From a virus: a DNA stretch of 64,000 nucleotides. This document shows positions 5,409-20,671 of this stretch, one piece after another; within the stretch, counting starts at the first letter, position 1; each line of letters starts with the position of its first letter. Location: IMG/VR virus record IMGVR_UViG_3300028589_000001; one strand, written 5' to 3'. The position numbers were made by a program, and so were the translations under genes. Below the pieces are notes generated by a model that was not told where the DNA came from, ran no database searches, and saw nothing but the letters and a program-made list of their open reading frames with translations.

Positions 5409-6233
5409 TTAGTCCTTGAACAACGGGTCAACCGGCAAAGCCGGCATTTCCAGCGTGCGTTGGAAGGTCACGGTCTTGGCTACCTTTTTCAAGGTGCCGT
5501 GGACGAAGAACTGGTGCACCAAGGTGTTCAGCATGCGCACACCCAGGGTGTTCTGTTCGTAGTTCTCTACGATGGCGTTGCGAATCTCCATCTTGGCCAC
5601 GGTCTGGTCCACCGATGGCATCAACTTGAAATAGTGGTGTAGCAGGTGGCTGTCATCCAGGAAACCAAGCATCTGGTCCAGAGTGACGCGCTCCAGGTTG
5701 AATACCAGGCCTACACGGCCCAGGAACTCGGTCTTGACGCCAAACTGACGCAGCTTGTCCAGGTCCATGTCCGGGGTGCCATTGAATGCACCAGCGAACA
5801 CGAACAGCACATGCTGGATGGCGATTTCGCGGTACTTGCCGTAGTCGGCCATTACCTGGGTGGTCGGACTTTCCAGCAGCTTCAGGATCTCGTTCTGTAC
5901 ACCGATGGTGCACTCATTGGCGGCTTCGTTACCGTTGCCGCTGATAAACAGCTTGTCGAACTCGTCCATGAAGCAAACCACTGGTTTCAGCCCTGTCTCG
6001 CCCAAAGGCGCCAGTGCCTTGCTCAGCGAGTTGCCGGCCAGGCCTTCTTTGGTGATCTGCGCGCAGTTCACTTCGAAGTACTGGATATCCTGCTCACGGC
6101 AGTATTCCTGGACGGTGTGCGACTTACCGCTGCCCGACGGGCCGGTCAGCATGAAATGCGGCCGGATTACACCGTCACTGGCTTGATGGATATCAAGAAT
6201 CCGTTTGACTGCGGCAATGTTGTCGATACTCAT
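5409..6233 (-). CDS. AAA+/P-loop ATPase
   Basis: Walker A LTGPSGSGKSH and Walker B-like CFMDEFDK. Confidence 0.65.
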   Translation of the reverse strand: MSIDNIAAVKRILDIHQASDGVIRPHFMLTGPSGSGKSHTVQEYCREQDIQYFEVNCAQITKEGLAGNSLSKALAPLGETGLKPVVCFMDEFDKLFISGNGNEAANECTIGVQNEILKLLESPTTQVMADYGKYREIAIQHVLFVFAGAFNGTPDMDLDKLRQFGVKTEFLGRVGLVFNLERVTLDQMLGFLDDSHLLHHYFKLMPSVDQTVAKMEIRNAIVENYEQNTLGVRMLNTLVHQFFVHGTLKKVAKTVTFQRTLEMPALPVDPLFKD

Positions 6234-6535: not shown

Positions 6536-6982
6536 CTACTGACCTTCGGCGCGCATTTGCGCCATGATTGCTTCACGCGGCGAATTGAACCACTCGGACT
6601 GCACTTCGTCACCTTCGTGCCAGTACAAGCTGTACAACATGGCGCCGTTGTGTTCGTCGTAACGCATAGTAGCTTGGCTATCAATCAGCCAATCCAACAT
6701 ACGAGAATCTGTGTACGGGTGCAGGGACTCTTGTTTCCAGCGCTGCACCAGCAACTTGGTTTCATCGCTGATGCTGATCAGGTTATTGGCATCGCGACTG
6801 ATCGGGTGGAATTCCTGACGGAAACCTTTACCTTCCGGCGACAAAGTTGGCACCTGTACGGCGACCTGGGCCATTTGCCACAGTCCTTTACCTTCCCGGT
6901 GCGCGATTTGATTATCGGTGCACCATTTGAGGAACGGTTCTACTTCGGCTACCAACAGGAAGCCTTTGATGAACTTAGACAT
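6536..6982 (-). CDS. hypothetical protein
   Basis: Track ORF 6536..7018; GGAG SD before the Met at 6982. Confidence 0.45.
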   Translation of the reverse strand: MSKFIKGFLLVAEVEPFLKWCTDNQIAHREGKGLWQMAQVAVQVPTLSPEGKGFRQEFHPISRDANNLISISDETKLLVQRWKQESLHPYTDSRMLDWLIDSQATMRYDEHNGAMLYSLYWHEGDEVQSEWFNSPREAIMAQMRAEGQ

Positions 6983-7310
6983 CTTCGTCTCCGGGGATAG
7001 GTTCGATGGGTACGCCAAGCTTCATAGAAAACCTGGCTGCCCGCATAACCGCCGCTGTGTAAGCGTTTGGTTGCTTGGCGCTGAAATCGGCCTGCCATAC
7101 TACGGTGCCATCGGTATAACGGATGTACACACTCATATGGGTACGTTCTTTGTCACCCAGTGCACACATAGTCACGCCGCCACCATTCAAGATGGTTGCA
7201 GTGACTTGAATACTGACTGGCTTAACCTGACTGTCTTCAGACAACACGGGTACTCTGAGCATTGGTTTCGACCTTTGGTGTGGCCAGCCCGTTACGGACC
7301 AGCAACTCAT
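6975..7310 (-). CDS. hypothetical protein
   Basis: Minus-strand ORF; start ambiguous (7310 or 7262). Confidence 0.35.
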   Translation of the reverse strand: MSCWSVTGWPHQRSKPMLRVPVLSEDSQVKPVSIQVTATILNGGGVTMCALGDKERTHMSVYIRYTDGTVVWQADFSAKQPNAYTAAVMRAARFSMKLGVPIEPIPGDEDV

Positions 7311-7467
7311 TGATGAAGTCGTGGCGTTCCAGCTTGCCGGCCTCTTCGTGCGGCAGGTTCATGCTGTTGTTGCCGTGTTCCCAGGCCTGGTGCAGCATGG
7401 CGCGCAACTTGCGCGAGCACAGGCCGTTGATCTTGCGGACGTAATTAACTGGTTCGAGCGAGGGCAC
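7237..7467 (-). CDS. hypothetical protein (76 aa, GTG start)
   Basis: ORF with an AAGGA SD upstream. Confidence 0.4.
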   Translation of the reverse strand: MPSLEPVNYVRKINGLCSRKLRAMLHQAWEHGNNSMNLPHEEAGKLERHDFINELLVRNGLATPKVETNAQSTRVV

Positions 7468-7843
7468 GGTTCTTTTCCTTGATGATTTCAGCGATCTTCT
7501 TTTCCTGGCGACGGGCCACGGTCACCGGGCGCGGCATGTGCTGCACGATCAGCAGGCCGCTGGTGTCAGCGTGGGTTGGTACCAGGGACACCATATGCTG
7601 GCGGTTGATGAGGTGGCCACGGACCACTTCATAGAAGCCAGTGCCATGATAGGCCAGCAGTTTCTTGCACGAGGTGCCGGACAGCATAGCTTCACGCGGC
7701 TGGTTGCTGCGCTCGTCGATGTAGATAACGTCCAGGCACTTGTCCGCCGCACGCACCGATACGATCTGGTGGGCGTGGAACGACTTCAGCACCTCTTTAC
7801 CGCGGGTTTCAGCGTATACAGCGAACTTGTTGTCCATGGTCAT
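7445..7843 (-). CDS. hypothetical protein (132 aa)
   Basis: ORF on the operon strand. Confidence 0.5.
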   Translation of the reverse strand: MTMDNKFAVYAETRGKEVLKSFHAHQIVSVRAADKCLDVIYIDERSNQPREAMLSGTSCKKLLAYHGTGFYEVVRGHLINRQHMVSLVPTHADTSGLLIVQHMPRPVTVARRQEKKIAEIIKEKNRALARTS

Positions 7844-8817: not shown

Positions 8818-9328
8818 GCAGCATTGCGAATGCGGTTACAGGTACCCAGTCGTCAGGCTTTACCCAGCCTTCTTCCCAAGCAGTGCGAATGTGCCCGGAG
8901 GGCACGGATACGAACCAAATGCCTCGTTTGGCGCAGCCATCAATCACAGGGCTGTAGGCCTTGCCATCAACGACACACCACGGCTTTTGGCAGAAACCAA
9001 AACGTTCGAGTACATCGGTGCGTACTTCGCCGGGGCCCCACATTTCCAGCTGGCGCCACAGTGCAGTGTTGCCGCGCTTCTTCGGCGCCCAAAGGTCAGG
9101 CCCTACTTGTTTCCACTGGTTTGGCGTCAGCACGGACGGGTCCTTGAAGACGAAACCAGCAAAGGAACCATCATGGGCCCAGGTACGAAACTCGCTGCAG
9201 CCAAAGGCCTCAGCTACTTGGGCAATGCCCATGCGGCGGTGCGCTTGACGACGGTCCAGTGCCTGGATCATGCCGTTCAAGGCACCACCATTGACCCGAT
9301 AGTGGGTCAAGGTGATGTTGTCGCTCAT
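8765..9328 (-). CDS. hypothetical protein (187 aa)
   Basis: ORF on the operon strand. Confidence 0.5.
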   Translation of the reverse strand: MSDNITLTHYRVNGGALNGMIQALDRRQAHRRMGIAQVAEAFGCSEFRTWAHDGSFAGFVFKDPSVLTPNQWKQVGPDLWAPKKRGNTALWRQLEMWGPGEVRTDVLERFGFCQKPWCVVDGKAYSPVIDGCAKRGIWFVSVPSGHIRTAWEEGWVKPDDWVPVTAFAMLHEKYDWSTEDVQSTETH

Positions 9329-9331
9329 GGT

Positions 9332-9655
9332 TTAAGCTTTCCTTCTTTGTACGCGACGTACACGCACTTTATTGAGATTAAGTTCAGGACCGTCTTCCTC
9401 AAAACCACGACCTGGGTAACGCATTTCGTAAACTACGGATACCCGCAGAGTGTCCCCTACGTTCAACTTGTGAGCCTGTTTAGGCAATGGGGTTAAGTCC
9501 CACTCCATCAAGTCAAAGCACTCAGTTACCGCATCTAAATGCTGATAGCTGTTATTAGAGCAAGACTGTATGTATGGGTGCACTTCCCAGTGTTTTTCAC
9601 CATAGCTCGCGTCTACAAGCCGGGTAATTACAAGTAATGCTTTACCCTTGATCAT
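9332..9655 (-). CDS. hypothetical protein (107 aa)
   Basis: ORF; TAAACCATG junction with the upstream gene. Confidence 0.45.
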   Translation of the reverse strand: MIKGKALLVITRLVDASYGEKHWEVHPYIQSCSNNSYQHLDAVTECFDLMEWDLTPLPKQAHKLNVGDTLRVSVVYEMRYPGRGFEEDGPELNLNKVRVRRVQRRKA

Positions 9656-10098: not shown

Positions 10099-10544
10099 GC
10101 GATCTCTCCAAAGGTGTGTTTGATGATGGTTTCGGTGCCGGTAATGTTGACCAGCCAGCACTCTTTGTCCCACGGGTACGACTCACCGCTGCCGAACTTG
10201 CCACCGCCGACAACCATGTTGAAGGCCAGGGCCTTGTCATTACTCAGCGGTATGGCGCGGACATACACATCGAAGTGTCGTTCCCAGCTTGGGTCGATAC
10301 GAGGTTCTACACCCTGGGCCCGTACCGCGCGGTCATAGCGGCATTCATTAAAAGCGTCGGTCTGTCCACGCAGGTCTTCGACATGTTCCAGGATCGCAGC
10401 ACCACTCATGGTGGCGATGGTTTCAGGCAGCAGGCCTACGTGGGCTTGGCCCAACTCGACTGCCTTGTGGAGGATCAGCACGCCAGCGATGGCTTGTGGG
10501 GACAGCGCCAGCAGGCTGTCATGCAACAGAATTGCAGGGGTCAT
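10095..10544 (-). CDS. hypothetical protein (149 aa)
   Basis: ORF on the operon strand. Confidence 0.5.
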   Translation of the reverse strand: MTPAILLHDSLLALSPQAIAGVLILHKAVELGQAHVGLLPETIATMSGAAILEHVEDLRGQTDAFNECRYDRAVRAQGVEPRIDPSWERHFDVYVRAIPLSNDKALAFNMVVGGGKFGSGESYPWDKECWLVNITGTETIIKHTFGEIA

Positions 10545-11241: not shown

Positions 11242-12507
11242 TCAAGAGATAGCATAGGTAGACTCCAGAATCATGTTGGCCAATTCGTCACCGTTCATTG
11301 CGTTGTCATAGTGCGGTTCTACACCGGTAATCTGTTTGAACACATCTTCCAGTGCACGACCACGAGCCAAGTCAGCCAGAATGCTTACATAGTGCGCACT
11401 CATGGCATTACAGTGGTTTGGGTGGCACTTGAACTCGTCATGCACAGTGATAACGTCGAACGCGCCGGCGTTCCACATCTCCAGCGCAATTTCATACAGT
11501 CGCACCAGATGCGGCGTCTCCATATAGCAGATGTTGGCGGTAGTCATATGCGGGAATATAACAACGTCAGCTACACGAGTGTGGTAGTAACGCTCAAGAT
11601 ATACGTGCATGGTTTCAGTGATTTCTTCAAGTTCAGCCTCCAAACCACCACGCTCATTACGGCGCGCAAGCTCGAACTCCATTACCTTAATGGCTTTGGC
11701 GAGCATATCCACATCATAGGTGCACCGGCGCTGCACACAGCGCAGCAAGTAGGCATCGAAGCTGTGGGTAACGTTAGCTACCAGCTTCAAGTCCTTCTTG
11801 GTGCCTTCGTTGACGTAGTAGTCCATGCTGAAGGTGCTGTGGCCCAACTCGTCCACTTCAACGCGGGCGCCTTCCACCTTCTGCATGACCTTGATGCGGG
11901 CATGGAAGTTGTCCGGCATTACCCACTTGTGCTCCAGCGCAAACGGTTGCCACGCAGCGCGCAGGTCGCCCAGCAGCTCTACTGCACCTGGGGCAATGTC
12001 GGTCAGGCCTTTGTAGAAGGCTTCCAGCTCTGGGGTATCTTCACCGAAGATGTCCCGTGGGGTCTTCACCGAGCCATACAGCGCAGTCATGGTGGCGTCC
12101 TTGGCGTCACCACGGTCGATGGCCAAGCCTCCGCCCAAGTACTGCGACGCCCTATCGGTCACCATGGTGTACGCATCGTTCCGGGTGTCCGGGTCGATCA
12201 GGTTGGTGGCCAGGCAGCCCAAGTAGCACTTGGTCAGCACGGACATGATGCTCATGCCGCTACAGGTTGCATCCAGGCCTACCAGATGGCCAATGGCTTG
12301 ACCTTTACAGGCACGCAGCAGGCCCATGACAGCCTTGACATACAGCGGGCGTTCCTTCTTCGGGCTGGCCAACACGGTCAGTCGCTCGAAGTTATCTTTA
12401 ACCCACTGAATACGCACTTCAAAGGTTTTCTTGTCCAAACCATACTGGTTTGCGATATCGATGCACAGCCATTCAACAGGGGTATATTGACGCTTCATAG
12501 GAGACAC
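11242..12507 (-). CDS. phage RNA polymerase II large subunit (T7-like single-subunit RNAP, palm/fingers half)
   Basis: LDATCSGMSIMS matches T7 motif A (DGSCSGIQH); ITVHDEFKCH matches T7 motif C (HDSFG). Confidence 0.8.
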   Translation of the reverse strand: MSPMKRQYTPVEWLCIDIANQYGLDKKTFEVRIQWVKDNFERLTVLASPKKERPLYVKAVMGLLRACKGQAIGHLVGLDATCSGMSIMSVLTKCYLGCLATNLIDPDTRNDAYTMVTDRASQYLGGGLAIDRGDAKDATMTALYGSVKTPRDIFGEDTPELEAFYKGLTDIAPGAVELLGDLRAAWQPFALEHKWVMPDNFHARIKVMQKVEGARVEVDELGHSTFSMDYYVNEGTKKDLKLVANVTHSFDAYLLRCVQRRCTYDVDMLAKAIKVMEFELARRNERGGLEAELEEITETMHVYLERYYHTRVADVVIFPHMTTANICYMETPHLVRLYEIALEMWNAGAFDVITVHDEFKCHPNHCNAMSAHYVSILADLARGRALEDVFKQITGVEPHYDNAMNGDELANMILESTYAIS

Positions 12508-12527: not shown

Positions 12528-12836
12528 TCAGCCCAGTAGTAAGTCTTTAAGTAGTATTGCCTTGGTAATACAGTCTTCAGGTTGCTTTACAGCCATGAAC
12601 ATGACACGGGTGCCGCTACTGTAGTGGCTTGCCTTGCGTGCAGCCCATACAGCACCATCAAACACAAAGCACACGTAATTCCAGAATTCCGGGGTATCCC
12701 GGAACCCTTCTTGGTTATCAGTATGGAAAGCCCAGTACTCTTCTTCTCCGGCAGTACCTTCATTCTTTAGTGAGCGCCACTTTGCAGGTAGCACCTGTAT
12801 GTCGGTTGGTTCGTGCCGCCAATACAGTCGAGACAT
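12528..12836 (-). CDS. small early protein, member of the C-terminal-motif paralog family
   Basis: C-terminus ITKAILLKDLLLG resembles the family motif; YW-containing core. Confidence 0.45.
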   Translation of the reverse strand: MSRLYWRHEPTDIQVLPAKWRSLKNEGTAGEEEYWAFHTDNQEGFRDTPEFWNYVCFVFDGAVWAARKASHYSSGTRVMFMAVKQPEDCITKAILLKDLLLG

Positions 12837-12837
12837 G

Positions 12838-13230
12838 TCAGTACTCCACTATCCTCACTGGTTTCGATCGGCGCTTCATCTCACCGATCATGTTGCCAGT
12901 ACCCTTGGACTCACCGTCCCAGAAAGCCAGCAGGCCAGACCCGTGCTCAGCCATGTAGGCATTGCGCATTGGGCCGGCTGCCTTGCCATGCTGCGACCAT
13001 TCGGCCGGCACACCCATGTAACGTAGCTTGAGGGCCTGGGCGGCCAGCTTGGCCCAGTAGTCAGCGCCACGAGGGCACTCACCACTGATGATGACGACCT
13101 CATAAGGCGCCAGCTCCTTCCACATGAGCTTGCAGACCTCTCGTTTGAGCAAGTCAAAGTCGTTGAAATCGCGACCACCAGCTACCACAAGGTAGTAGGG
13201 TGGTTTAGAAGCGGAATTCGTCTGGGACAT
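12838..13230 (-). CDS. SLOG/DprA-LOG-like Rossmann protein (DUF2493-like)
   Basis: LVVAGGRDF ... VVIISGECPRGADYWA ... AGPMRN glycine-rich nucleotide-binding-type motifs. Confidence 0.45.
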   Translation of the reverse strand: MSQTNSASKPPYYLVVAGGRDFNDFDLLKREVCKLMWKELAPYEVVIISGECPRGADYWAKLAAQALKLRYMGVPAEWSQHGKAAGPMRNAYMAEHGSGLLAFWDGESKGTGNMIGEMKRRSKPVRIVEY

Positions 13231-14134
13231 CGGTAATCACCTCTTTGTTGTGTAGTTCAACCATGGCTTTCTTGATTGGGCTGCCTTGAGTGCTGATATG
13301 GTAACCACAGGCGTACAGACGCCCACGTTTGTCACACTTGTGGTCCAGATAGAACTTATTACCCTGTTGGGCCATCAGATGATAGAACTCATACGACTGG
13401 CCTTTCATGTCGAGCCAGTTCTTCACCTTTTCAGGTGTATCCAGCTCACTGTTGGGCTCTTCTTCAACAAGGCACAGGAATTCCGTGTCCAGGGACAATG
13501 GAATGCTATTCTTGATGTTGATAGCGTCCAAACAGATGTCATCACTGTGATGACCCTTGTTCAAGATCCTTGAGGTGTCCTCAATGGTCAGGTACGGGGT
13601 ATCACGGTTATGGGTGAGCTTCTTAGGCTCGCAAACCAGTGGTGGCAGGTAAGTGGCGTTCTTTATGTACTCTTCCAGCTCTGGCGGCAGTTGAACGTTG
13701 CTGGTGATATGCAAGCTGTCAAACTTGTCATTCTTGTCGATATCGAAGAAGTCAGTTTCACACAGCACGGCTGCGATCTCTGCAACGGTCTTTACCGACT
13801 CCAGCTTGTCATCGAAGCCCAGGATACCTGCTAGTTTCGCGCAGAAGCTGCTATACAGCTCACGCGACTGGCAATAAACACTTGCAACCACAACGTCTAG
13901 CACAATGGCTTCAAGATCCATTGCACGCAGCGCAGCTACGCGCACATTCTTGCTGCTGTAGCTGAACTCCGTGTTTGCCCACTCAGTGAGCAGGGTCAAC
14001 CCCTTCGCCAGCGCTGGCTGGAATACTTCCGTGGCAGCGATGTACTTGCGCACATAGCCGTCGATGTGATGGCGGGCAAAGCGGTATTCGTTCGCGCGCT
14101 GCATATCATCAGGCAACATCAGTGCTGGTTTCAT
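13205..14134 (-). CDS. phage RNA polymerase II small subunit (T7-like RNAP N-terminal-half homolog)
   Basis: YLDHKCDKRGRLYACGYHISTQGSP resembles T7 RNAP DWRGRVYAVS; lies upstream of the large-subunit gene. Confidence 0.7.
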   Translation of the reverse strand: MKPALMLPDDMQRANEYRFARHHIDGYVRKYIAATEVFQPALAKGLTLLTEWANTEFSYSSKNVRVAALRAMDLEAIVLDVVVASVYCQSRELYSSFCAKLAGILGFDDKLESVKTVAEIAAVLCETDFFDIDKNDKFDSLHITSNVQLPPELEEYIKNATYLPPLVCEPKKLTHNRDTPYLTIEDTSRILNKGHHSDDICLDAINIKNSIPLSLDTEFLCLVEEEPNSELDTPEKVKNWLDMKGQSYEFYHLMAQQGNKFYLDHKCDKRGRLYACGYHISTQGSPIKKAMVELHNKEVITDVPDEFRF

Positions 14135-14137
14135 GGT

Positions 14138-14413
14138 TTAGTCCTTGTTGAGGTGGTGTAGTAACAGTATTTCGGGAGGAACTTGGTCTTCGTTACAGGC
14201 ATTCCAAGAGAAATGGGTTATACCTGTTCTGCGGCCCCATGTAGCGGGGTATTTGTCATCAGCCGGCCACCAAGTAAAGAACTTGGAGCCTTCAGGACAA
14301 TCATGGCTGTCTTCGTTTGGATCAGGTCTGCGTGGGCAGGCACTAATCAGTTTTGGGTAGTACTCCCACGTTTCCCAGTCCCAAACCATGGCATACACGT
14401 AGTGGATGTTCAT
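14138..14413 (-). CDS. small early protein, C-terminal-motif paralog family
   Basis: C-terminus QVPPEILLLHHLNKD. Confidence 0.5.
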   Translation of the reverse strand: MNIHYVYAMVWDWETWEYYPKLISACPRRPDPNEDSHDCPEGSKFFTWWPADDKYPATWGRRTGITHFSWNACNEDQVPPEILLLHHLNKD

Positions 14414-14694
14414 ACATTCAACAAGTGCAACATTTTGAGTTCTTGGGGCACGTCACACTCACGTACCGTGGACCAAGTAGGATCACCTACACCCCGCATA
14501 CGCAGATCAGCCCAGACATCTGGCCTATCAGACCTAACGGCCCACAAAGCGCGTCCGTGGTGTATCTTGAGCCCAAACCGCTTAGTTAACACATCACTAG
14601 TAGCCTCGGTGGTTTGATCTATGAAGAAGTAACGCTTCTGCATGTTTTGGACGTCATCTTCCTCCGCATACAGGTGATATCTGATATTACTCAT
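14410..14694 (-). CDS. small early protein, C-terminal-motif paralog family
   Basis: C-terminus DVPQELKMLHLLNV; internal Met of track ORF 14410..14898. Confidence 0.45.
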   Translation of the reverse strand: MSNIRYHLYAEEDDVQNMQKRYFFIDQTTEATSDVLTKRFGLKIHHGRALWAVRSDRPDVWADLRMRGVGDPTWSTVRECDVPQELKMLHLLNV

Positions 14695-14947
14695 CTTTAA
14701 GCGTCCTATAGAGCATGATTTCACGTGGTACTTCATCTTCCCGTATGGCTTCCCATGCAGCACAGCTACTGATGCACTTATGCCACAAATTGAGCGTACC
14801 ACGACGCATATACAGGTCTTCGGAGTACATGTGCATAGCTTCTCGGAATCGCCAAGCTGACTGATGCGAATAACACACAGTTTCTTTGACTCCGTCATTT
14901 GTAAGCCAGTAGACAGGTCTCATGTCTACTCCAGCAGGGTTAGCCAT
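14687..14947 (-). CDS. small early protein, C-terminal-motif paralog family
   Basis: C-terminus EVPREIMLYRTLKDE; the start may be the second Met, which has a GGAG SD. Confidence 0.45.
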   Translation of the reverse strand: MANPAGVDMRPVYWLTNDGVKETVCYSHQSAWRFREAMHMYSEDLYMRRGTLNLWHKCISSCAAWEAIREDEVPREIMLYRTLKDE

Positions 14948-15270
14948 AGTTGAATCTCCGAGGGGAGGTCTTTAAGCGCTACGTTGTGCCACCCTATGGC
15001 GGAATTGGTGTTTGGGTGGTACTTATACCCCACACGCCACCATTGGTTGTTGTTCATAGGCACATAAACGTTATCAGCGCCGTACTGCTCTACTACAGCA
15101 GTCGCTGTGTTGGGTATCACATCTCGAAACTCAACGTGTACCCCTTCTGGTTTGATGATGAGTGCGTACACCCTCTTACCGTCAATCTCCACGTTTTGAT
15201 ACTCACTTATACGTTTATATGTATTAAGTAGGCGCTCTAACGTTATGCTGTCGCGCCATACAGGTGTCAC
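14926..15270 (-). CDS. small early protein, C-terminal-motif paralog family
   Basis: C-terminus DLPSEIQLWLTLLE. Confidence 0.5.
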   Translation of the reverse strand: MTPVWRDSITLERLLNTYKRISEYQNVEIDGKRVYALIIKPEGVHVEFRDVIPNTATAVVEQYGADNVYVPMNNNQWWRVGYKYHPNTNSAIGWHNVALKDLPSEIQLWLTLLE

Positions 15271-15698
15271 AGCTTCCAGACTTGGACATTGTCCGGCAGG
15301 ATGCGGTAGATCGACTCGAACAGGAAGTCCGGCTCTTTGCCACCCGGGTGTTCCAGCGCATACACCTTGTCAGGGTTGGCCTGAGCTACCTCGCGCAGCA
15401 GCTTGGCCGCGTGGCTGATCAGCTTCAGATCAGGGCCGTTCTTGGGCAGGTGCTCATTCTGGAACACGCCAATCTTGGCCGAGGGTGGGCATATGAAATG
15501 CCAGAACTCACCCTTGTCTGTCATGGCTTTACCCAGTTGCTTGGGTACCAATGGCATCTTTGCAGCCAGGCGGCCAGCTGCACCGTTGAGCATGATGCGC
15601 TCGCCATCACTGCGTACAGCACTATTCATGCAAATGATCAGTACGGTGTTTGGACGTCCTAACAGACTCAGTACGTCGCCTTGGTGTTTAGTAGCCAT
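15267..15698 (-). CDS. hypothetical protein (143 aa)
   Basis: Internal Met of track ORF 15267..16019, preceded by GGAGG. Confidence 0.45.
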   Translation of the reverse strand: MATKHQGDVLSLLGRPNTVLIICMNSAVRSDGERIMLNGAAGRLAAKMPLVPKQLGKAMTDKGEFWHFICPPSAKIGVFQNEHLPKNGPDLKLISHAAKLLREVAQANPDKVYALEHPGGKEPDFLFESIYRILPDNVQVWKL

Positions 15699-15699
15699 G

Positions 15700-15945
15700 T
15701 CAATCCTCCAGATATAAGAACAGTTGGATCTCTTTAGGGATATCCAATTCGTTAATGGGCATTTCAGTGCGTTGCTGATAGCCGCCACCGTTGTAGTACC
15801 ACACAGTGGTCCAGCCTTGCTGTTGTAGCGGTTTCTTGGGCTTACCGCACAGGTAATAGCGGTGATAGGGGCTTGGTGCTTGCTTCTCAGGCACATAAGC
15901 CCCGTCACGCAGCACGTACCACGTATGATCGTGATACACGGACAT
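15700..15945 (-). CDS. small early protein, C-terminal-motif paralog family
   Basis: C-terminus DIPKEIQLFLYLED; GGAGGG SD. Confidence 0.5.
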   Translation of the reverse strand: MSVYHDHTWYVLRDGAYVPEKQAPSPYHRYYLCGKPKKPLQQQGWTTVWYYNGGGYQQRTEMPINELDIPKEIQLFLYLED

Positions 15946-16215
15946 TTAACCCTCCAACATGAGATAGAGCTGTATAACATCCGGCAGTGCGTTTCTTGTG
16001 AGCGTAACGTTAGCACCAAGCATTACCCACTCCTCAGCGCCGTCAGAGTTACTGACAGTGCGCATATAACGGTCGTACTCACGCAACGATGCGTTAGGTG
16101 GGGGTTTGAGGTGCAGTTCGTCGGTCTGCCGGTGCACATAATAGAAGAACTGTGCGCCTGGCACGTTCCAGTCCTTCGGTTTGGTACGGCTACTGGTATT
16201 CACGCAGGTGCCCAT
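15946..16215 (-). CDS. small early protein, C-terminal-motif paralog family
   Basis: C-terminus ALPDVIQLYLMLEG. Confidence 0.5.
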   Translation of the reverse strand: MGTCVNTSSRTKPKDWNVPGAQFFYYVHRQTDELHLKPPPNASLREYDRYMRTVSNSDGAEEWVMLGANVTLTRNALPDVIQLYLMLEG

Positions 16216-16501
16216 TGTTGTTCATGAACAATACGGCCTTGTTGGTGCTGTTACAGCACAACACGGCGGTGTGAATGCGGTGAAACTGGTAGCTATTCAC
16301 AACTTGCTGCGCTTGTCGCGCATCCTGCACCGGATGGCTTACTTTGTGGAATTCTTCATCAGCGAAGAACTCCACATGCAGCGTAAACGGGCTATCGAAA
16401 CCCAAAGCGCTTTCACGCTGGCTGCGGACCAGCTCACGTAGCAATAGTGCGATGCACAGTAGTAAAACCAGCAGTGTTACGATTGCGATGTGGTTAGTCA
16501 T
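16190..16501 (-). CDS. membrane protein (N-terminal TM)
   Basis: N-terminal IVTLLVLLLCIALLL. Confidence 0.4.
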   Translation of the reverse strand: MTNHIAIVTLLVLLLCIALLLRELVRSQRESALGFDSPFTLHVEFFADEEFHKVSHPVQDARQAQQVVNSYQFHRIHTAVLCCNSTNKAVLFMNNNGHLREYQ

Positions 16502-17136
16502 TGCATTTTCACCTGTTTGAGGTTGTTGTCATATTTTTCGTTCAGCGCTTTGTTGAAGCTGAGCCTTACAGGCAACAACTTCATCTTTTCGGTGATGGTT
16601 TGGCTTACAGCCACACCAAAACAGTGCAACCGTGTGTTAGCACGCTCAGCCAGACCTTTATTGAACTTTATATCAGCTTCCAGCGTTGCAACGGTTTTAG
16701 CATGCTTAGCGCGCAGCAATTTACCCATTGCACGCTTACCACGGGTAATCATGCGCTTGTTGTGATCAGAACTAATGTCAGCCAGCTCATTGTGCAGTTC
16801 AGCCAGTTGATCGGACATAGACTGAGCTTCGTCACACACAAAGGTGTAACGCTGCGTCAGTTGGTCGTGTTGCTCCTTCCAATACTTACTGGCTTGCTCT
16901 GCGAGCAGCAGATTTTTGGCAGCTTCAACACTGTTGTCAGCAACGGTCTGCTCATGGTCACGGATGACCTTTTGCAGCAATGCTTCCTGCTCACTGTGTA
17001 GCTTGGAAAGCAACTTCGTTACACCCAAGATTTCTTCTTCTTTGCGACGCTCACATACGGAATAACCTATCAATGCGCCGATGAAGGCAGCAAACGCAGC
17101 TGCTGCTGCCAAATAAGCTACAAATTCCATATCCAT
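16498..17136 (-). CDS. membrane-anchored coiled-coil protein
   Basis: N-terminal AAAFAAFIGALIGY followed by long heptad-like repeats. Confidence 0.5.
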   Translation of the reverse strand: MDMEFVAYLAAAAAFAAFIGALIGYSVCERRKEEEILGVTKLLSKLHSEQEALLQKVIRDHEQTVADNSVEAAKNLLLAEQASKYWKEQHDQLTQRYTFVCDEAQSMSDQLAELHNELADISSDHNKRMITRGKRAMGKLLRAKHAKTVATLEADIKFNKGLAERANTRLHCFGVAVSQTITEKMKLLPVRLSFNKALNEKYDNNLKQVKMQ

Positions 17137-17137
17137 G

Positions 17138-17716
17138 TCACTTACTCCAGTCTTTAGGGCCTACAGGGCCACGATTAGGTTGTGGTTTACGTTTATGTTG
17201 GTTTTGGTGCGGGGTTTTGTCGAGCGGCTGTAGTTTGTGCCGTTTAGCGTGCTGCAAGCTGCTCCAGAAGAACTGATCGGGGTCTTCATGCTTGATGACG
17301 ATGTCATCCACCACGACCTTCACTGGTTTGTTGCTGCTGCGTATTGGCGGCACCATGTAATAGGCCATGGTGTCTAATCCGTTCGACGCCACATCCATAC
17401 CCAGCAAGGTCTTGCCTGGCTGCCGCCCGCTGACTATGGGTACCTGTCCCAGCTTGTCCATGGCATCTTTGATATCGCGGTACCAGTCTGCTGTGGTCTT
17501 TTTGGGCAGGGTCTGCGCCGGGGCATTCAGCATGACCTTGCCAAAGTCCAGCGCAGACATGCTGGTCAAGCTGTCGATCACACGCCGCTCAAGCCAGTTG
17601 AAGTCAGGCTTGTCCAGTTCAAAGTGGGCCAGCCGCATTTGTTCGTCTATGTCCATGACTGCTCCTATATAAAGAAGAAGGCCACCACCCCGGTTGGGAT
17701 GATGGCCAATGGGCAT
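17138..17716 (-). CDS. hypothetical protein
   Basis: ORF; the start may be the internal Met. Confidence 0.45.
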   Translation of the reverse strand: MPIGHHPNRGGGLLLYIGAVMDIDEQMRLAHFELDKPDFNWLERRVIDSLTSMSALDFGKVMLNAPAQTLPKKTTADWYRDIKDAMDKLGQVPIVSGRQPGKTLLGMDVASNGLDTMAYYMVPPIRSSNKPVKVVVDDIVIKHEDPDQFFWSSLQHAKRHKLQPLDKTPHQNQHKRKPQPNRGPVGPKDWSK

Positions 17717-18066
17717 TACAGTGCCAGTTCGGACTCGGCCTCGTCTGGCGATGGGTTGAAGGTCAGTTGCAGCATCTCAGCCAAGCGGTTGATACGCTCG
17801 ACACTCAGCTGCTTGATCTCCTCGTCGGACATGCCTTCGAGGTTGTCACCTTCTTTGGACAGGTTCAGGTGCGCGAACACCTGCTCGTGAATCGGGTTGC
17901 CCTTGATCAGGCGCACGCTATCGACGCGACGGTGCTTGCCTGGGGTTTTGGTGGGCAGACCGAGGTTCAGGTAACCCAGAATTTCTTGCTTGGCGCGGCC
18001 GCCGCCGTTGTTAGCGGTGCCGGTGGCTGCTTGTGCTTGTGCTTTGGCGGTGTCTTTGAAAGCCAT
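17716..18066 (-). CDS. hypothetical protein (116 aa)
   Basis: ORF on the operon strand. Confidence 0.5.
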   Translation of the reverse strand: MAFKDTAKAQAQAATGTANNGGGRAKQEILGYLNLGLPTKTPGKHRRVDSVRLIKGNPIHEQVFAHLNLSKEGDNLEGMSDEEIKQLSVERINRLAEMLQLTFNPSPDEAESELAL

Positions 18067-18141
18067 GATGTAGTTCTCTCTGTAGATTAGAAGTGGTTGG
18101 CATGATTGCCGTTACAAGGCCGGAGGCCGTGCTTTTGATCT

Positions 18142-18420
18142 TTATGCTGCGAGTTGCGGTCTTGCGGTTTGGTTGGCCAGCTCAGTGAGCACTTCAAGCT
18201 CAAATTCCGGCAGGTTGAAGGCGTAGTCGTTGGGACTGGACATGTACAACTCGTCACCGAGGTACAGATGCCATTGGTCGTCACGTAGCTTGAAGTGGCC
18301 AATGCCTACACCCTTGCGGGTCAAACCGGCGTGACAGTCCACTCGATACAGTGGTTCATCACCCACAAAGTAGGTGAAGCTGTCGTCTTTGAGGTTCAGC
18401 ACTTGTTTGAGATGTACCAT
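18142..18420 (-). CDS. hypothetical protein (92 aa)
   Basis: ORF on the operon strand. Confidence 0.45.
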   Translation of the reverse strand: MVHLKQVLNLKDDSFTYFVGDEPLYRVDCHAGLTRKGVGIGHFKLRDDQWHLYLGDELYMSSPNDYAFNLPEFELEVLTELANQTARPQLAA

Positions 18421-18683
18421 CAGTTCAGTTCCTTTTGTATGTGGATGGACACGTTGTACCCGATGTTCACGGCGCAGCTGTACAGCTTGTCCAAGCTTAC
18501 GCCTTGATGGTCGCCTTTGATGATGCGGTAGGCCACTGACTCACTACAGCCAAGATACTTGGCCACTTCGGCACCCTTTTCCAGCTGATTCCACGCCAAG
18601 GCGCGCTTGAGATGGTTCAACAGTTCTTCTTTACGAGAATTCAGGTTGCACAGCACCCAAGACGGAGTTCTGTTCACAGACAC
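18420..18683 (-). CDS. XRE/Cro-like helix-turn-helix DNA-binding protein
   Basis: VAKYLGCSESVAYRIIKG helix-turn-helix signature. Confidence 0.6.
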   Translation of the reverse strand: MSVNRTPSWVLCNLNSRKEELLNHLKRALAWNQLEKGAEVAKYLGCSESVAYRIIKGDHQGVSLDKLYSCAVNIGYNVSIHIQKELN

Positions 18684-18951
18684 AGTTAGTACCTCGTTAG
18701 ACTATATTCATACTGGTTTCAGGGCCGTATACGCTATGGTTTTCCATAGACACATAGGCCCATTTGAGAACTTTTAGGTTCTAGGTTAGAAGTTGTTGCA
18801 CAAGGCGATGACAGCTGCTGGGGTAGCAGCTTTGTTCAGGCCTGTGGTCACCAGATGCTGGACGATCAGGTGGACGTTGATGTTGCGCAGATACATGTCA
18901 CGGACAAGTGTTCTCACGAATGGACGCACGGCGCCCTCCTTAAATAGATGT

Positions 18952-19284
18952 TTAGAGACCTTCGTTTTCCATAGCAAGGGCGAAGCCCTGCCACCAGTCG
19001 CGGCAATGCTCGACTGTGATTTTGTGATGCTGGATGCCCAGTGTCTTGACCAGGTGGTTGATCAGCGTCGTGACACCAGTAGCCCTCAGCTTGCGTTCGA
19101 TACGACGGCGCAACAGGTCGGCGCTGACACGGCTCAGATTACCGTCCAATACCTCGTGGTTTAGGAACGGGCACATGAAATTCATGTCATAGCCCCGCTT
19201 GAACGTGGTGCCGTGTGGGCGCATGAACTCAGGCTTGTAGCGGTCACTGCAGACCAGGCCCAGCAGGTAGTAGGACAGTTTCAT
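18952..19284 (-). CDS. hypothetical protein (110 aa)
   Basis: ORF on the operon strand. Confidence 0.45.
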   Translation of the reverse strand: MKLSYYLLGLVCSDRYKPEFMRPHGTTFKRGYDMNFMCPFLNHEVLDGNLSRVSADLLRRRIERKLRATGVTTLINHLVKTLGIQHHKITVEHCRDWWQGFALAMENEGL

Positions 19285-19478
19285 AGGTCTAGCTCCAAAG
19301 CGGCTGCATTATCAATGATGTGCTGTATTTCAGCGATGGTGGCATCCAGCCTGTATTCCCGCTTGAGCCGGTGCTGGCACACACGTGCATCCGCACGCAT
19401 GCCCAGCACCAGTAGCTCCAGCTGTGTTTGTTGCTTGTCACTGCGGGCCTTAGCCATACCAGATAGCCAGGCCGGCAA
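19281..19478 (-). CDS. hypothetical protein (65 aa)
   Basis: Small ORF on the operon strand. Confidence 0.35.
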   Translation of the reverse strand: MPAWLSGMAKARSDKQQTQLELLVLGMRADARVCQHRLKREYRLDATIAEIQHIIDNAAALELDL

Positions 19479-19622
19479 TGGTGGTAGCGCCTACCAGGGT
19501 TGTATAGAACATCACCGCAGTGAACTTGCGGTTGATAGTGCTGTGGATGAAGTCCCACAGCAGCACCACGCACACGATCGCCACGATGGTGTACAGGATG
19601 CAGTCAGCGATTGTCGCGAGCA

Positions 19623-20213
19623 TCAGAAAAGCTCCAAGTTGTCATTGTCAGTCGAGGTTTCAGCCTCGGCGCAGTGTGCAGCGTATCCGGCATCCAGCTG
19701 CCCGTGGATAGCCACAATCAGTGGTTGCACCACGCACATGCTGTAGCCCATGACCATGAGGTCCAACAGACACTGGTCTCTGCCGATGGTCCAGCAGTAT
19801 GCGATGTACTCACGCATACCGCCTGGTTTAAGGAGGGTTGGTGCCAGTCGAGCTGTCAGCCACGCCGGCCGCTTGGTGTAGTACTTCAGGTAGTAGTCGT
19901 TGCACGCAGGGTGTACGCGCATGCCAATGGCTTGTTGTATGGCGCCCAAGGCTTCACAGGCGGCACAGTGGCCACCTTCGCCCAGTGGTACCAGGTGTGC
20001 GGTACAGAAGTATTCTTTGCAGCCGCCGCAGTGGCCATGAGCATGGTCTACGCCGCCTTTGCAGTACGGGCATTCATTGTCGAAGGCCAAGCCGTAGTCC
20101 ATGTACTGCGTGCGTGCGATGGCGCAGTGGTCAGCGTAGGTGTGGTTGGTGTTGTCAGTAGGGTGTACAGCTTGCAGTGCGGCTTGAATAGGGGTCATGA
20201 CACATGTCCTCAT
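19623..20213 (-). CDS. Cys/His-rich zinc-binding protein
   Basis: Multiple CxxC and HxHGHC clusters. Confidence 0.5.
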   Translation of the reverse strand: MRTCVMTPIQAALQAVHPTDNTNHTYADHCAIARTQYMDYGLAFDNECPYCKGGVDHAHGHCGGCKEYFCTAHLVPLGEGGHCAACEALGAIQQAIGMRVHPACNDYYLKYYTKRPAWLTARLAPTLLKPGGMREYIAYCWTIGRDQCLLDLMVMGYSMCVVQPLIVAIHGQLDAGYAAHCAEAETSTDNDNLELF

Positions 20214-20437
20214 TGGCTTAATAGGTGGTGTAAGCGGATTTGCTGGGGTACAGCGTCGTCAGGCGCATGCACATGACCGTCTATTGCCGGTTTATGCACA
20301 CGCCACGTATTGCTGTGGGCATCATGCCAGTAGTAGGCCTGGGCACCGGTGTCAGCCAGCAGTAGCTCGATTTCATCACCTGTAAGGTCGTCGTCGACCA
20401 AACCGATTCTGCCATCAGCTTTGTGTAGGTATTCCAT
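20210..20437 (-). CDS. small early protein, C-terminal-motif paralog family
   Basis: C-terminus AVPQQIRLHHLLSQ; a clear paralog of 20438..20671 (shared MEYL..ADG..YYW core). Confidence 0.5.
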   Translation of the reverse strand: MEYLHKADGRIGLVDDDLTGDEIELLLADTGAQAYYWHDAHSNTWRVHKPAIDGHVHAPDDAVPQQIRLHHLLSQ

Positions 20438-20671
20438 TTAGGTCACCAATACTTGCATTAGCAGGATGGTTTTGGGTACGTCACAATCGTGCAAGCGGGT
20501 GTAGTCCAGTTGGTCCCGGTACAACCGGCCCCAACCTTTACCACGTAAGGGTGTGATAGCCCAGTAATAGGCATATGCACCAGGCAAGGCCAACAGGGCC
20601 TGTATATCCTCATAAACGGTGTCAGCAGGGTGTGTGGTAATGGTCCCGTCAGCGAATAGCAGGTATTCCAT
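20438..20671 (-). CDS. small early protein, C-terminal-motif paralog family
   Basis: C-terminus DVPKTILLMQVLVT. Confidence 0.5.
   Translation of the reverse strand: MEYLLFADGTITTHPADTVYEDIQALLALPGAYAYYWAITPLRGKGWGRLYRDQLDYTRLHDCDVPKTILLMQVLVT

Follow-up and report, generated by a model that had tools for sequence, protein, structure and literature searches.

A lineage-restricted family of small early proteins that share a C-terminal motif in an N4-like phage of Pseudomonas

IMG/VR virus record IMGVR_UViG_3300028589_000001, a stretch of 64,000 nucleotides called here the window, comes, by the evidence of its sequence, from an N4-like podophage (Schitoviridae) of Pseudomonas. Upstream of the gene for the small subunit of the phage RNA polymerase (RNAP) II—RNAP2 or RNAPII in what follows—it carries eight small genes whose products all end in the same short motif, a proline followed by a predicted amphipathic helix. 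We think it probable that these eight early genes are members of one lineage-restricted, fast-diverging family, and that the tail they have in common is the core helix of a shared fold. An earlier note on this DNA had proposed a family of at least nine, and had taken the tail for a docking peptide, perhaps for the bacterial β-sliding clamp (DnaN) or for RNAP. Eight of the nine do share the motif and its profile; the ninth, the open reading frame (ORF) at 12528-12836, belongs to another family with another predicted fold. As far as its sequences tell, the family of eight is restricted to N4-like phages of environmental (fluorescens-group) Pseudomonas, and has hitherto gone undescribed. It is new to databases; an expanded family of early-region ORFans is, in itself, a familiar kind of thing.

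The tail motif

The nine ORFs named earlier are all present on the minus strand, with C-terminal sequences exactly as quoted. The pattern P..[ILVM].[LM]...L occurs within the last 18 residues of eight ORFs, and in only three of the approximately 780 other stop-to-stop ORFs of the window, all three in non-coding frames. When the 26 early proteins were each shuffled, motif tails averaged 0.03 over 20,000 trials and never exceeded two; eight are observed. A hidden Markov model (HMM) built from other phage genera only places these eight ORFs at the top of all 948 in the window, with E-values from 3e-5 to 0.32. On these counts, and on this ranking, the multi-copy family of small early proteins stands. 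The motif persists, too, in orthologs and in related genera, where its disappearance had been named beforehand as the observation that would speak against the proposal.

The consensus of the eight tails is [DE][DE]-[VLI]-P-x-x-[IVL]-[KQR]-[LM]-x-x-[LM]-[LIV], and the proteins end 10–12 residues past the proline. A fuller signature, derived from 69 non-redundant tails and numbered from that invariant proline, begins with acidic residues at -2/-3, V/L/I at -1 and E/D/K at +1, and continues through the helix with I/V/L at +3, K/Q/R/L at +4, L/M/V at +5, mostly Ala at +6, L/M at +8 and L/I/V at +9. Positions +3, +5, +6, +8 and +9 are hydrophobic and conserved; positions +4, +7 and +11 form a polar stripe, and are variable. 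Read from the sequences, this is the conservation pattern of a capped, half-buried helix. Upstream of the tail stand a near-invariant Trp and an aromatic residue.

The family comprises some 28 subfamilies that are distinct by BLAST and join at the profile level only. Compared by hhalign, the group formed by 14138-15270 and its orthologs in L012—part of L011/L012, the metagenome contig in ENA that is the closest public relative of the window—matches the group formed by 20210-20671, phage phCDa gp27-29 and others with an E-value of 2.1e-5 and a probability of 77% over 49 columns, which take in both of the aromatic/Trp strands and the helix. We call these groups B and A, respectively. The subgroup of 15946-16215 matches group A with an E-value of 0.006 and group B with one of 3.8e-6. 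Profile–profile comparison thus carries the homology, as judged from these alignments, beyond the tail for six of the eight genes; two are joined to the rest by the tail only, and 12528-12836 shows no relationship.

Predicted structure

One member, the 75-amino acid (aa) product of 20210-20437, was modeled with AlphaFold2 (AF2) from a 50-sequence family alignment. The model has a mean predicted local distance difference test (pLDDT) score of 83.6 and a predicted template modeling (pTM) score of 0.70, and its topology is β1 β2 α1 β3 β4 β5 α2. At the C-terminus, an Asp-Asp-Ala turn and Pro64 lead into a terminal helix of residues 65–74, the whole block having pLDDT scores of 85–89. Models in BFVD of phCDa paralogs that belong to other BLAST clusters superpose on this one near full length, with template modeling (TM) scores of 0.64–0.84 and probabilities of 0.98–1.00, and the β-β-α-β-β-β-α fold is common to it and to the models from phages phCDa, Littlefix and ZC08. 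Because of these model confidences, the full-length superpositions and the conservation pattern, the tail is most likely a packed, capped helix of a compact domain and not a free peptide. The docking peptide proposed earlier is, in the one paralog modeled, confidently predicted to be a capped helix inside a domain.

If this is right, the unit that the proteins have in common would be a C-terminal module of approximately 45 residues: an aromatic-rich β-strand, a turn, a β-strand with the near-invariant Trp, a short β-strand, an acidic-acidic-[VLI]-Pro cap and, closing the module and the protein alike, an amphipathic helix of 10–12 residues. In the modeled member, this module would combine with an N-terminal β-hairpin and helix into one compact β-β-α-β-β-β-α domain. 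What keeps the tail constant, on this view, would be that its hydrophobic face and the Trp make up the core of the fold; the protein could vary freely in its N-terminal half, in its loops and on the exposed side of the helix. Tandem duplication, fast divergence and early position together fit host-takeover or anti-defence effectors with different targets. We infer that the family might be one of duplicating, fast-evolving early effectors that present a single scaffold to different host or defence targets right after infection, and that its tandem, often overlapping genes may be co-expressed through translational coupling.

Why the tail is conserved

Several observations weigh against a core helix, and some of them suit a different role. 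The case for burial is built on model confidence, superposition and conservation, and the AF2 modeling covers one member of the family only. When the last 13 residues are removed, the cross-genus HMM signal is no longer significant, and the tail is therefore far better conserved than the remainder of the protein; for a purely structural role to account for this, the helix would have to be the principal element of the core. Two of the genes, 15946-16215 and 15700-15945, align significantly with the others over just 17–18 tail columns in hhalign, and the hydrophobic arc of the helix is wide, approximately 200 degrees, which would also suit an intermolecular interface. In the literature on phCDa, Littlefix and LIT1 gp18, moreover, no functional data were found for any member. 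The Trp hairpin and terminal helix might, then, be a docking or oligomerization adaptor for one hub, with variable N-terminal halves that differ in activity; candidate hubs are the phage RNAPII or its cofactor Drc, the host RNAP, or the family itself, through homo- or heterodimers of paralogs. Such an adaptor would account for the strength of the tail among paralogs and the loss of signal without it, for the two members that have the tail alone in common, for the wide hydrophobic face, and for a proline that, in 73 of 76 members, is set 10–12 residues before the free C-terminus; the family genes cluster beside the RNAP2 genes, besides, and ORFs around the RNAP2 genes of phages PA26 and LUZ7 have weakly similar tails. 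Yet AF2 puts the helix confidently inside a compact monomeric domain, and independent models concur; variation in the helix falls on its probably exposed positions; and a partner was indicated by none of the searches. We regard this explanation as rather doubtful. Docking to a common partner is possible as such, and none of the results here points to one. That the Trp hairpin and capped helix are a portable adaptor by which 6–14 early proteins per phage all dock one hub—RNAPII/Drc, host RNAP or the β-clamp—while their variable N-terminal halves supply differing regulatory or inhibitory activities, we consider unlikely.

A more particular proposal concerns the QLxLxL tails of 15946-16215, 15700-15945 and 14926-15270 and, less strictly, those of the other members: they would bind host DnaN in the manner of the C-terminal hexapeptide of Pol IV, and so block or hijack replication. 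Exact QLxLxL is indeed present in three of the eight window members, as the earlier note had observed, and it lies near the C-terminus, as in the β-clamp-motif proteins Pol IV and MuC/Mor. Terminal clamp-binding motifs have a precedent in these phage Mu MuC/Mor regulators, in which the family consensus includes the Q and a terminal [LM]F and the motifs stand at the protein ends (PMC12867686), and PMC4564189 mentions QLxLxL for Pol IV. In the window family, unlike in those proteins, the Q is not conserved: position +4 is K in 23 of the 69 tails, Q in 19, R in 14 and L in 11, K, R and L being accepted equally. The literal QLxLx[LF] occurs in four of the 69, namely the three window genes, which are neighbors within 14926-16215, and one ortholog, and these are not independent. 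A conserved proline and acidic cap, unrelated to clamp motifs, precede the segment, which is predicted, again unlike clamp motifs, to be a packed helix with this cap; in the paralog modeled (20210-20437, not itself a QLxLxL member) it is predicted to be a helix packed in the domain. Clamp binding uses extended peptides at flexible protein ends. Given the variability of +4, the rarity of the literal motif and the predicted helix, clamp binding is very unlikely for the family as a whole. N4 gp8, presumably a clamp-loader inhibitor, was inspected for the family motif and lacks it. An amphipathic helix that is short and stands at the extreme C-terminus could, in principle, bring proteins to the inner membrane in the manner of MinD or FtsA, but the flanks here are acidic, not basic (D/E at -2 to -4, E/D at +1), the proteins are acidic overall, with isoelectric points (pI) of 5.0–6.4, and the prediction packs the helix against the domain, all of which makes membrane targeting extremely improbable. 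That same range of pI values is only mildly acidic, and on that ground a role as DNA mimics was rejected.

The last rival places the constraint in the DNA: the tail codons would hold a ribosome-binding site (RBS), a coupling signal, a promoter or a terminator for the next gene. Several of the genes do overlap or abut one another, and three junctions, TTGGAGGGTTAA-ATG, CTGGAGGATTGAC-ATG and AACAAGGACTAA, have a GGAG-like sequence within the final two or three codons. But the overlap of RBS and tail occurs at these junctions only, and so explains the last two or three residues in three genes, much as had been argued earlier, whereas the conserved part of the tail lies 20–36 nt upstream of the stop codon, outside any Shine–Dalgarno distance. 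A DNA repeat covering the tails was looked for in the window, and none was found. Other genera spell the motif with other codons, and it is retained before intergenic gaps as well. Between the window and L012, 50 of 98 tail codons are identical, 24 are non-synonymous and 24—a quarter—are synonymous. Conservation is thus at the level of the protein, as first supposed. From the codon changes, the limited RBS overlap and the absent repeat, a DNA repeat and the RBS were both rejected as the cause, and this explanation, to which we allow next to no probability, is effectively refuted. Identity between the same orthologs is 76% in the tail and 61% in the remainder, and by the sequence evidence they are under purifying selection along their whole length. 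Over full length, ortholog identity for the family is 41–88%, against 88–97% for most core neighbors, and genes have been gained and lost inside the array between window and L012.

Relatives in other phages

True homologs of the family are found in phCDa (gp27-29, gp39, gp40, gp42-48), in Littlefix (gp49-52, gp55 and the gp56 region) and among the early ORFs of 98PfluR60PP. Like the window genes, they carry the Trp hairpin and the signature of the tail and stand upstream of the gene for the RNAP2 small subunit, and their predicted structures superpose with TM scores of 0.60–0.84; they are annotated as ‘hypothetical protein’ only, and mostly fall into other BLAST-level subfamilies than the window genes do. 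A literature search found no publication describing the family, and no family name or function. Counted as HMM matches, plus motif-only ORFs where stated, there are 14 family tails in phCDa (two of them unannotated), six in Littlefix, seven in 98PfluR60PP, 8–10 in each of four IMG/VR contigs and eight in L012 (six by HMM, and two by tail only). In each of these relatives, every copy is an early-region gene placed upstream of that for the RNAP2 small subunit. In N4, LUZ7 and PA26, the family HMM detected no members at E<0.01.

The two unannotated ORFs of phCDa (NC_048003), 9204-9437 and 7214-7441, carry the full family motif. In a different frame, the latter overlaps both gp40 and gp41; a gene overlooked in annotation, or a frameshift introduced by sequencing, could be the reason.

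Database searches confine the family in the same way. A word-indexed search of 5.8 billion proteins returned 21, and then 86, candidates, all from N4-like contigs of approximately 72 kb, and an exhaustive profile search of 1.84 billion representatives returned 23 matches that, repeat-protein artefacts aside, are only short proteins from such contigs. Scans of Pfam, PHROGs v4 and NCBIfam, with the window members and with 50 aligned members, and of PDB sequences, found no relative of the family; nor did curated-library scans match any member to the RNAPII cofactors Drc or N4 gp2. P0048, P0049, P0052, P0057, P0060, P0061 and P0064 were rejected as long repeat proteins that sum weak β-hairpin matches. 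Among the first four, a unit such as ‘GDLLQFNGTKWVKVTPD’ is repeated nine times, and weak matches to the aromatic-turn-Trp hairpin add up. The family profile is short, and searchers should beware of matches of this kind.

Beyond this clade, two proteins might be distant relatives, and the sequence likeness makes them leads. One is gp18 of the Litunavirus phages (PA26, LIT1, Pa2 and others), which occupies the same slot, between the homolog of the gp17 ‘phosphatase’ and the RNAP2 small subunit. Present in 72 records, it ends ...G.W..(13)..LVPxEIxAQSLLFD, and hhalign aligns it with the family over 33 columns with an E-value of 0.0019 and a probability of just 14%. The other, LUZ7 gp21, carries WHSVPKEVRLMKTL but has an 11-residue extension past the helix. 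The matches are weak in both cases (hhalign probabilities 14% and 8%; E-values with the HMM 0.06 and 0.34), and both proteins are single-copy, whereas the window family forms an array. Motif-like tails (LVPAEIRAQSLLFD, LLPADLKAMLVIW..., DIPKELQALLTIYGL and SVPKEVRLMKTL...) are found, again as leads only, in PA26 at 5569-5877, 6834-7094 and 7451-7657 and in LUZ7 at 6582-6905; these ORFs flank the RNAP2 genes.

In place, size, tandem order and presumed early expression, the family resembles the arrays of small early ‘ORFans’ implicated in host takeover, such as the leftmost early operons of LUZ7 (PMC9163698), which likewise have no database relatives. It differs from them in that many of the ORFans here are recognizably of one family, with a defined signature and a predicted fold, present in 6–14 copies per genome. 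The small α+β phage inhibitor or antitoxin folds of T4 Dmd, the C-terminal domain of λ Ea22, and RnlB are of similar size and have a similar architecture of β-sheet plus helix.

Significance

Approximately one-third of the anonymous early ORFs in this clade of Pseudomonas N4-like phages—Littlefixvirus, Shizishanvirus and the window lineage—become, with these results, one definable family that has a signature, a predicted fold without a PDB neighbor and clear orthogroups. Expanded early families with fast turnover are prime candidates for host-takeover or anti-defence functions, and a shared scaffold makes them more tractable, in that one structure, and one design of tail deletion, might serve for many paralogs. 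If the link to gp18 is true, the family becomes approachable in the P. aeruginosa systems LIT1, PA26 and DEV. Concepts would change only if the helix turned out to be a docking module common to the family; were the adaptor reading true, a combinatorial system of early regulators would be new for N4-like phages.

The eight genes

The family genes form two tandem arrays on the minus strand, 20671-20210 and 16215-14138. Member 1 (20438-20671; 77 aa, tail DVPKTILLMQVLVT) is the second gene of the early, leftward block. It carries the motif, its E-value of 3.4e-5 with the other-genera HMM is the best of the 948 ORFs, and its L012 ortholog is 76% identical. Member 2 (20210-20437; 75 aa, tail AVPQQIRLHHLLSQ), the protein modeled by AF2, is its tandem paralog. 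Both cluster by BLAST with phCDa gp27-29, a subfamily that the window and phCDa lineages both retain right where the early region begins.

The second array opens with the two genes joined to the family by the tail. Member 3 (15946-16215; 89 aa) carries the motif in a QLxLxL tail, ALPDVIQLYLMLEG, which its L012 ortholog, only 41.5% identical, retains as SLPKSIQLHLLLES; its L-E-G codons are the GGAGG RBS for the next gene. Member 4 (15700-15945; 81 aa) has a QLxLxL tail as well, DIPKEIQLFLYLED, with the motif, and its L-E-D codons are a GGAGGA RBS. Its score with the other-genera HMM is the lowest of the eight (E 0.32), and still ranks eighth of 948. It has neither a BLAST partner nor an ortholog in L012, the closest relative. 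L012, for its part, has a family member at 7032-7259 (tail NLPKEVQLWILLQDS) in a different slot, with no ortholog in the window.

Member 5 (14926-15270, motif tail DLPSEIQLWLTLLE, QLxLxL) comprises 114 aa if it starts at the GTG at 15270, which overlaps the upstream stop codon, or 88 aa if it starts at the GTG at 15192; public gene calls (P0051), and an L012 ortholog of 85 aa, favor the shorter form. Member 6 (14687-14947, motif tail EVPREIMLYRTLKDE) has 86 aa; a start at an internal ATG would give 78 aa, the form found in public data (P0001); its ortholog is 72% identical. The ortholog of member 7 (14410-14694; 94 aa, motif tail DVPQELKMLHLLNV) is 50.5% identical overall, with 12 of 14 tail residues the same. 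Member 8 (14138-14413; 91 aa, motif tail QVPPEILLLHHLNKD) contains seven Trp residues and lies directly upstream of the RNAP2 small-subunit gene, in the slot that gp18 has in the Litunavirus phages; its ortholog is 88% identical.

The ninth ORF

The ORF at 12528-12836, also on the minus strand, lies between the RNAP2 subunit genes, and was the reason for placing a family member there. It is not one: hhalign, homologs of its own and the AF2 and BFVD models all assign it elsewhere. Its C-terminal tail, ITKAILLKDLLLG, is without the proline; family HMM searches, that with the other-genera profile included, never matched it; and hhalign against the main family gave probabilities of 0.2–0.35%, that is, no relationship. 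Its own family has 35 homologs and the signature MARL[FY]...WAAR...ILLKDLLLG or MLLADMILN. These homologs always lie between the RNAP2 subunit genes, often as pairs of paralogs such as 10147-10431 and 10424-10684 in L012, and 11406-11696 and 11704-11982 (gp52 and gp53) in phCDa.

The AF2 model of this ORF (pLDDT 86.6) is mostly β, with a terminal helix. In BFVD it matches phCDa gp52 (TM 0.76) and no main-family model. Foldseek matches it weakly to head-tail adaptor folds of the SPP1-gp16 type (TM 0.45–0.58, E 1e-3 to 2e-2). The gene lies in the early region and not in the structural module, and the resemblance may be no more than the generic one of a β-barrel plus helix. The likeness of its hydrophobic last helix to the family tail may reflect distant kinship or convergence.

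The early block and its other genes

Megablast of the region against 50,697 phage records gave zero matches at the DNA level; its relatives are found at the level of protein only. The RNAP2 subunits are 88–92% identical to those of L011/L012. The large subunit (11242-12507, minus strand; 421 aa, N4 gp16-like) was identified by tblastn, which found matches in 896 phage records; it is approximately 60% identical to the RNA polymerase of Littlefix, phCDa and 98PfluR60PP, and approximately 47% identical to its counterparts in P. aeruginosa Litunavirus phages. The small subunit (13205-14134, minus strand; N4 gp15-like) was identified by its identity to IMG/VR relatives (64–65%) and L012 (92%), and by synteny with Littlefix, phCDa and PA26, in which the small-subunit gene is annotated.

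The minus-strand early block runs from approximately 21.7 kb down to 11.2 kb. Within it, 17716-18066 (minus strand) encodes a homolog of LUZ7 gp14, ‘Drc’ (pairwise BLASTP E 4e-6), and this marks the region as an early module. Drc is a single-stranded DNA-binding cofactor of RNAPII, and both Drc and RNAPII are early products in LUZ7 (PMC9163698, PMC7145618); in N4 and LUZ7, the equivalent block makes up the early module, and the virion RNAP that is injected transcribes it (PMC9163698). From the synteny of its Drc and RNAPII genes, the window block, too, is presumably expressed early and transcribed by the virion RNAP. The intergenic gaps were scanned for hairpin early promoters of the N4 type, and no consistent consensus emerged. 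RefSeq labels the Drc equivalents of LUZ7, PA26 and Littlefix ‘toxin’.

The second array is interrupted by a gene of another kind, 15267-15698 (minus strand; 143 aa), a homolog of PA26 gp17 (BLASTP E 4e-22). PA26 gp17 is annotated ‘phosphatase’; a Pfam scan of the window protein found no match. Between the RNAP2 subunit genes lies, besides the ninth ORF, the gene for a YAcAr/SLOG-family protein (12838-13230, minus strand; Pfam PF10686, E 5.8e-10), which is 97% identical in L012 and is found also in Littlefix (gp59) and 98PfluR60PP (gp90). Directly after the first two family members comes 19623-20213 (minus strand), which encodes an early protein of 196 aa, without a Pfam match, that is rich in Cys and His (CPYCKGG...HGHCGGC...). 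It is 69% identical in L012 and is possibly a zinc-binding protein.

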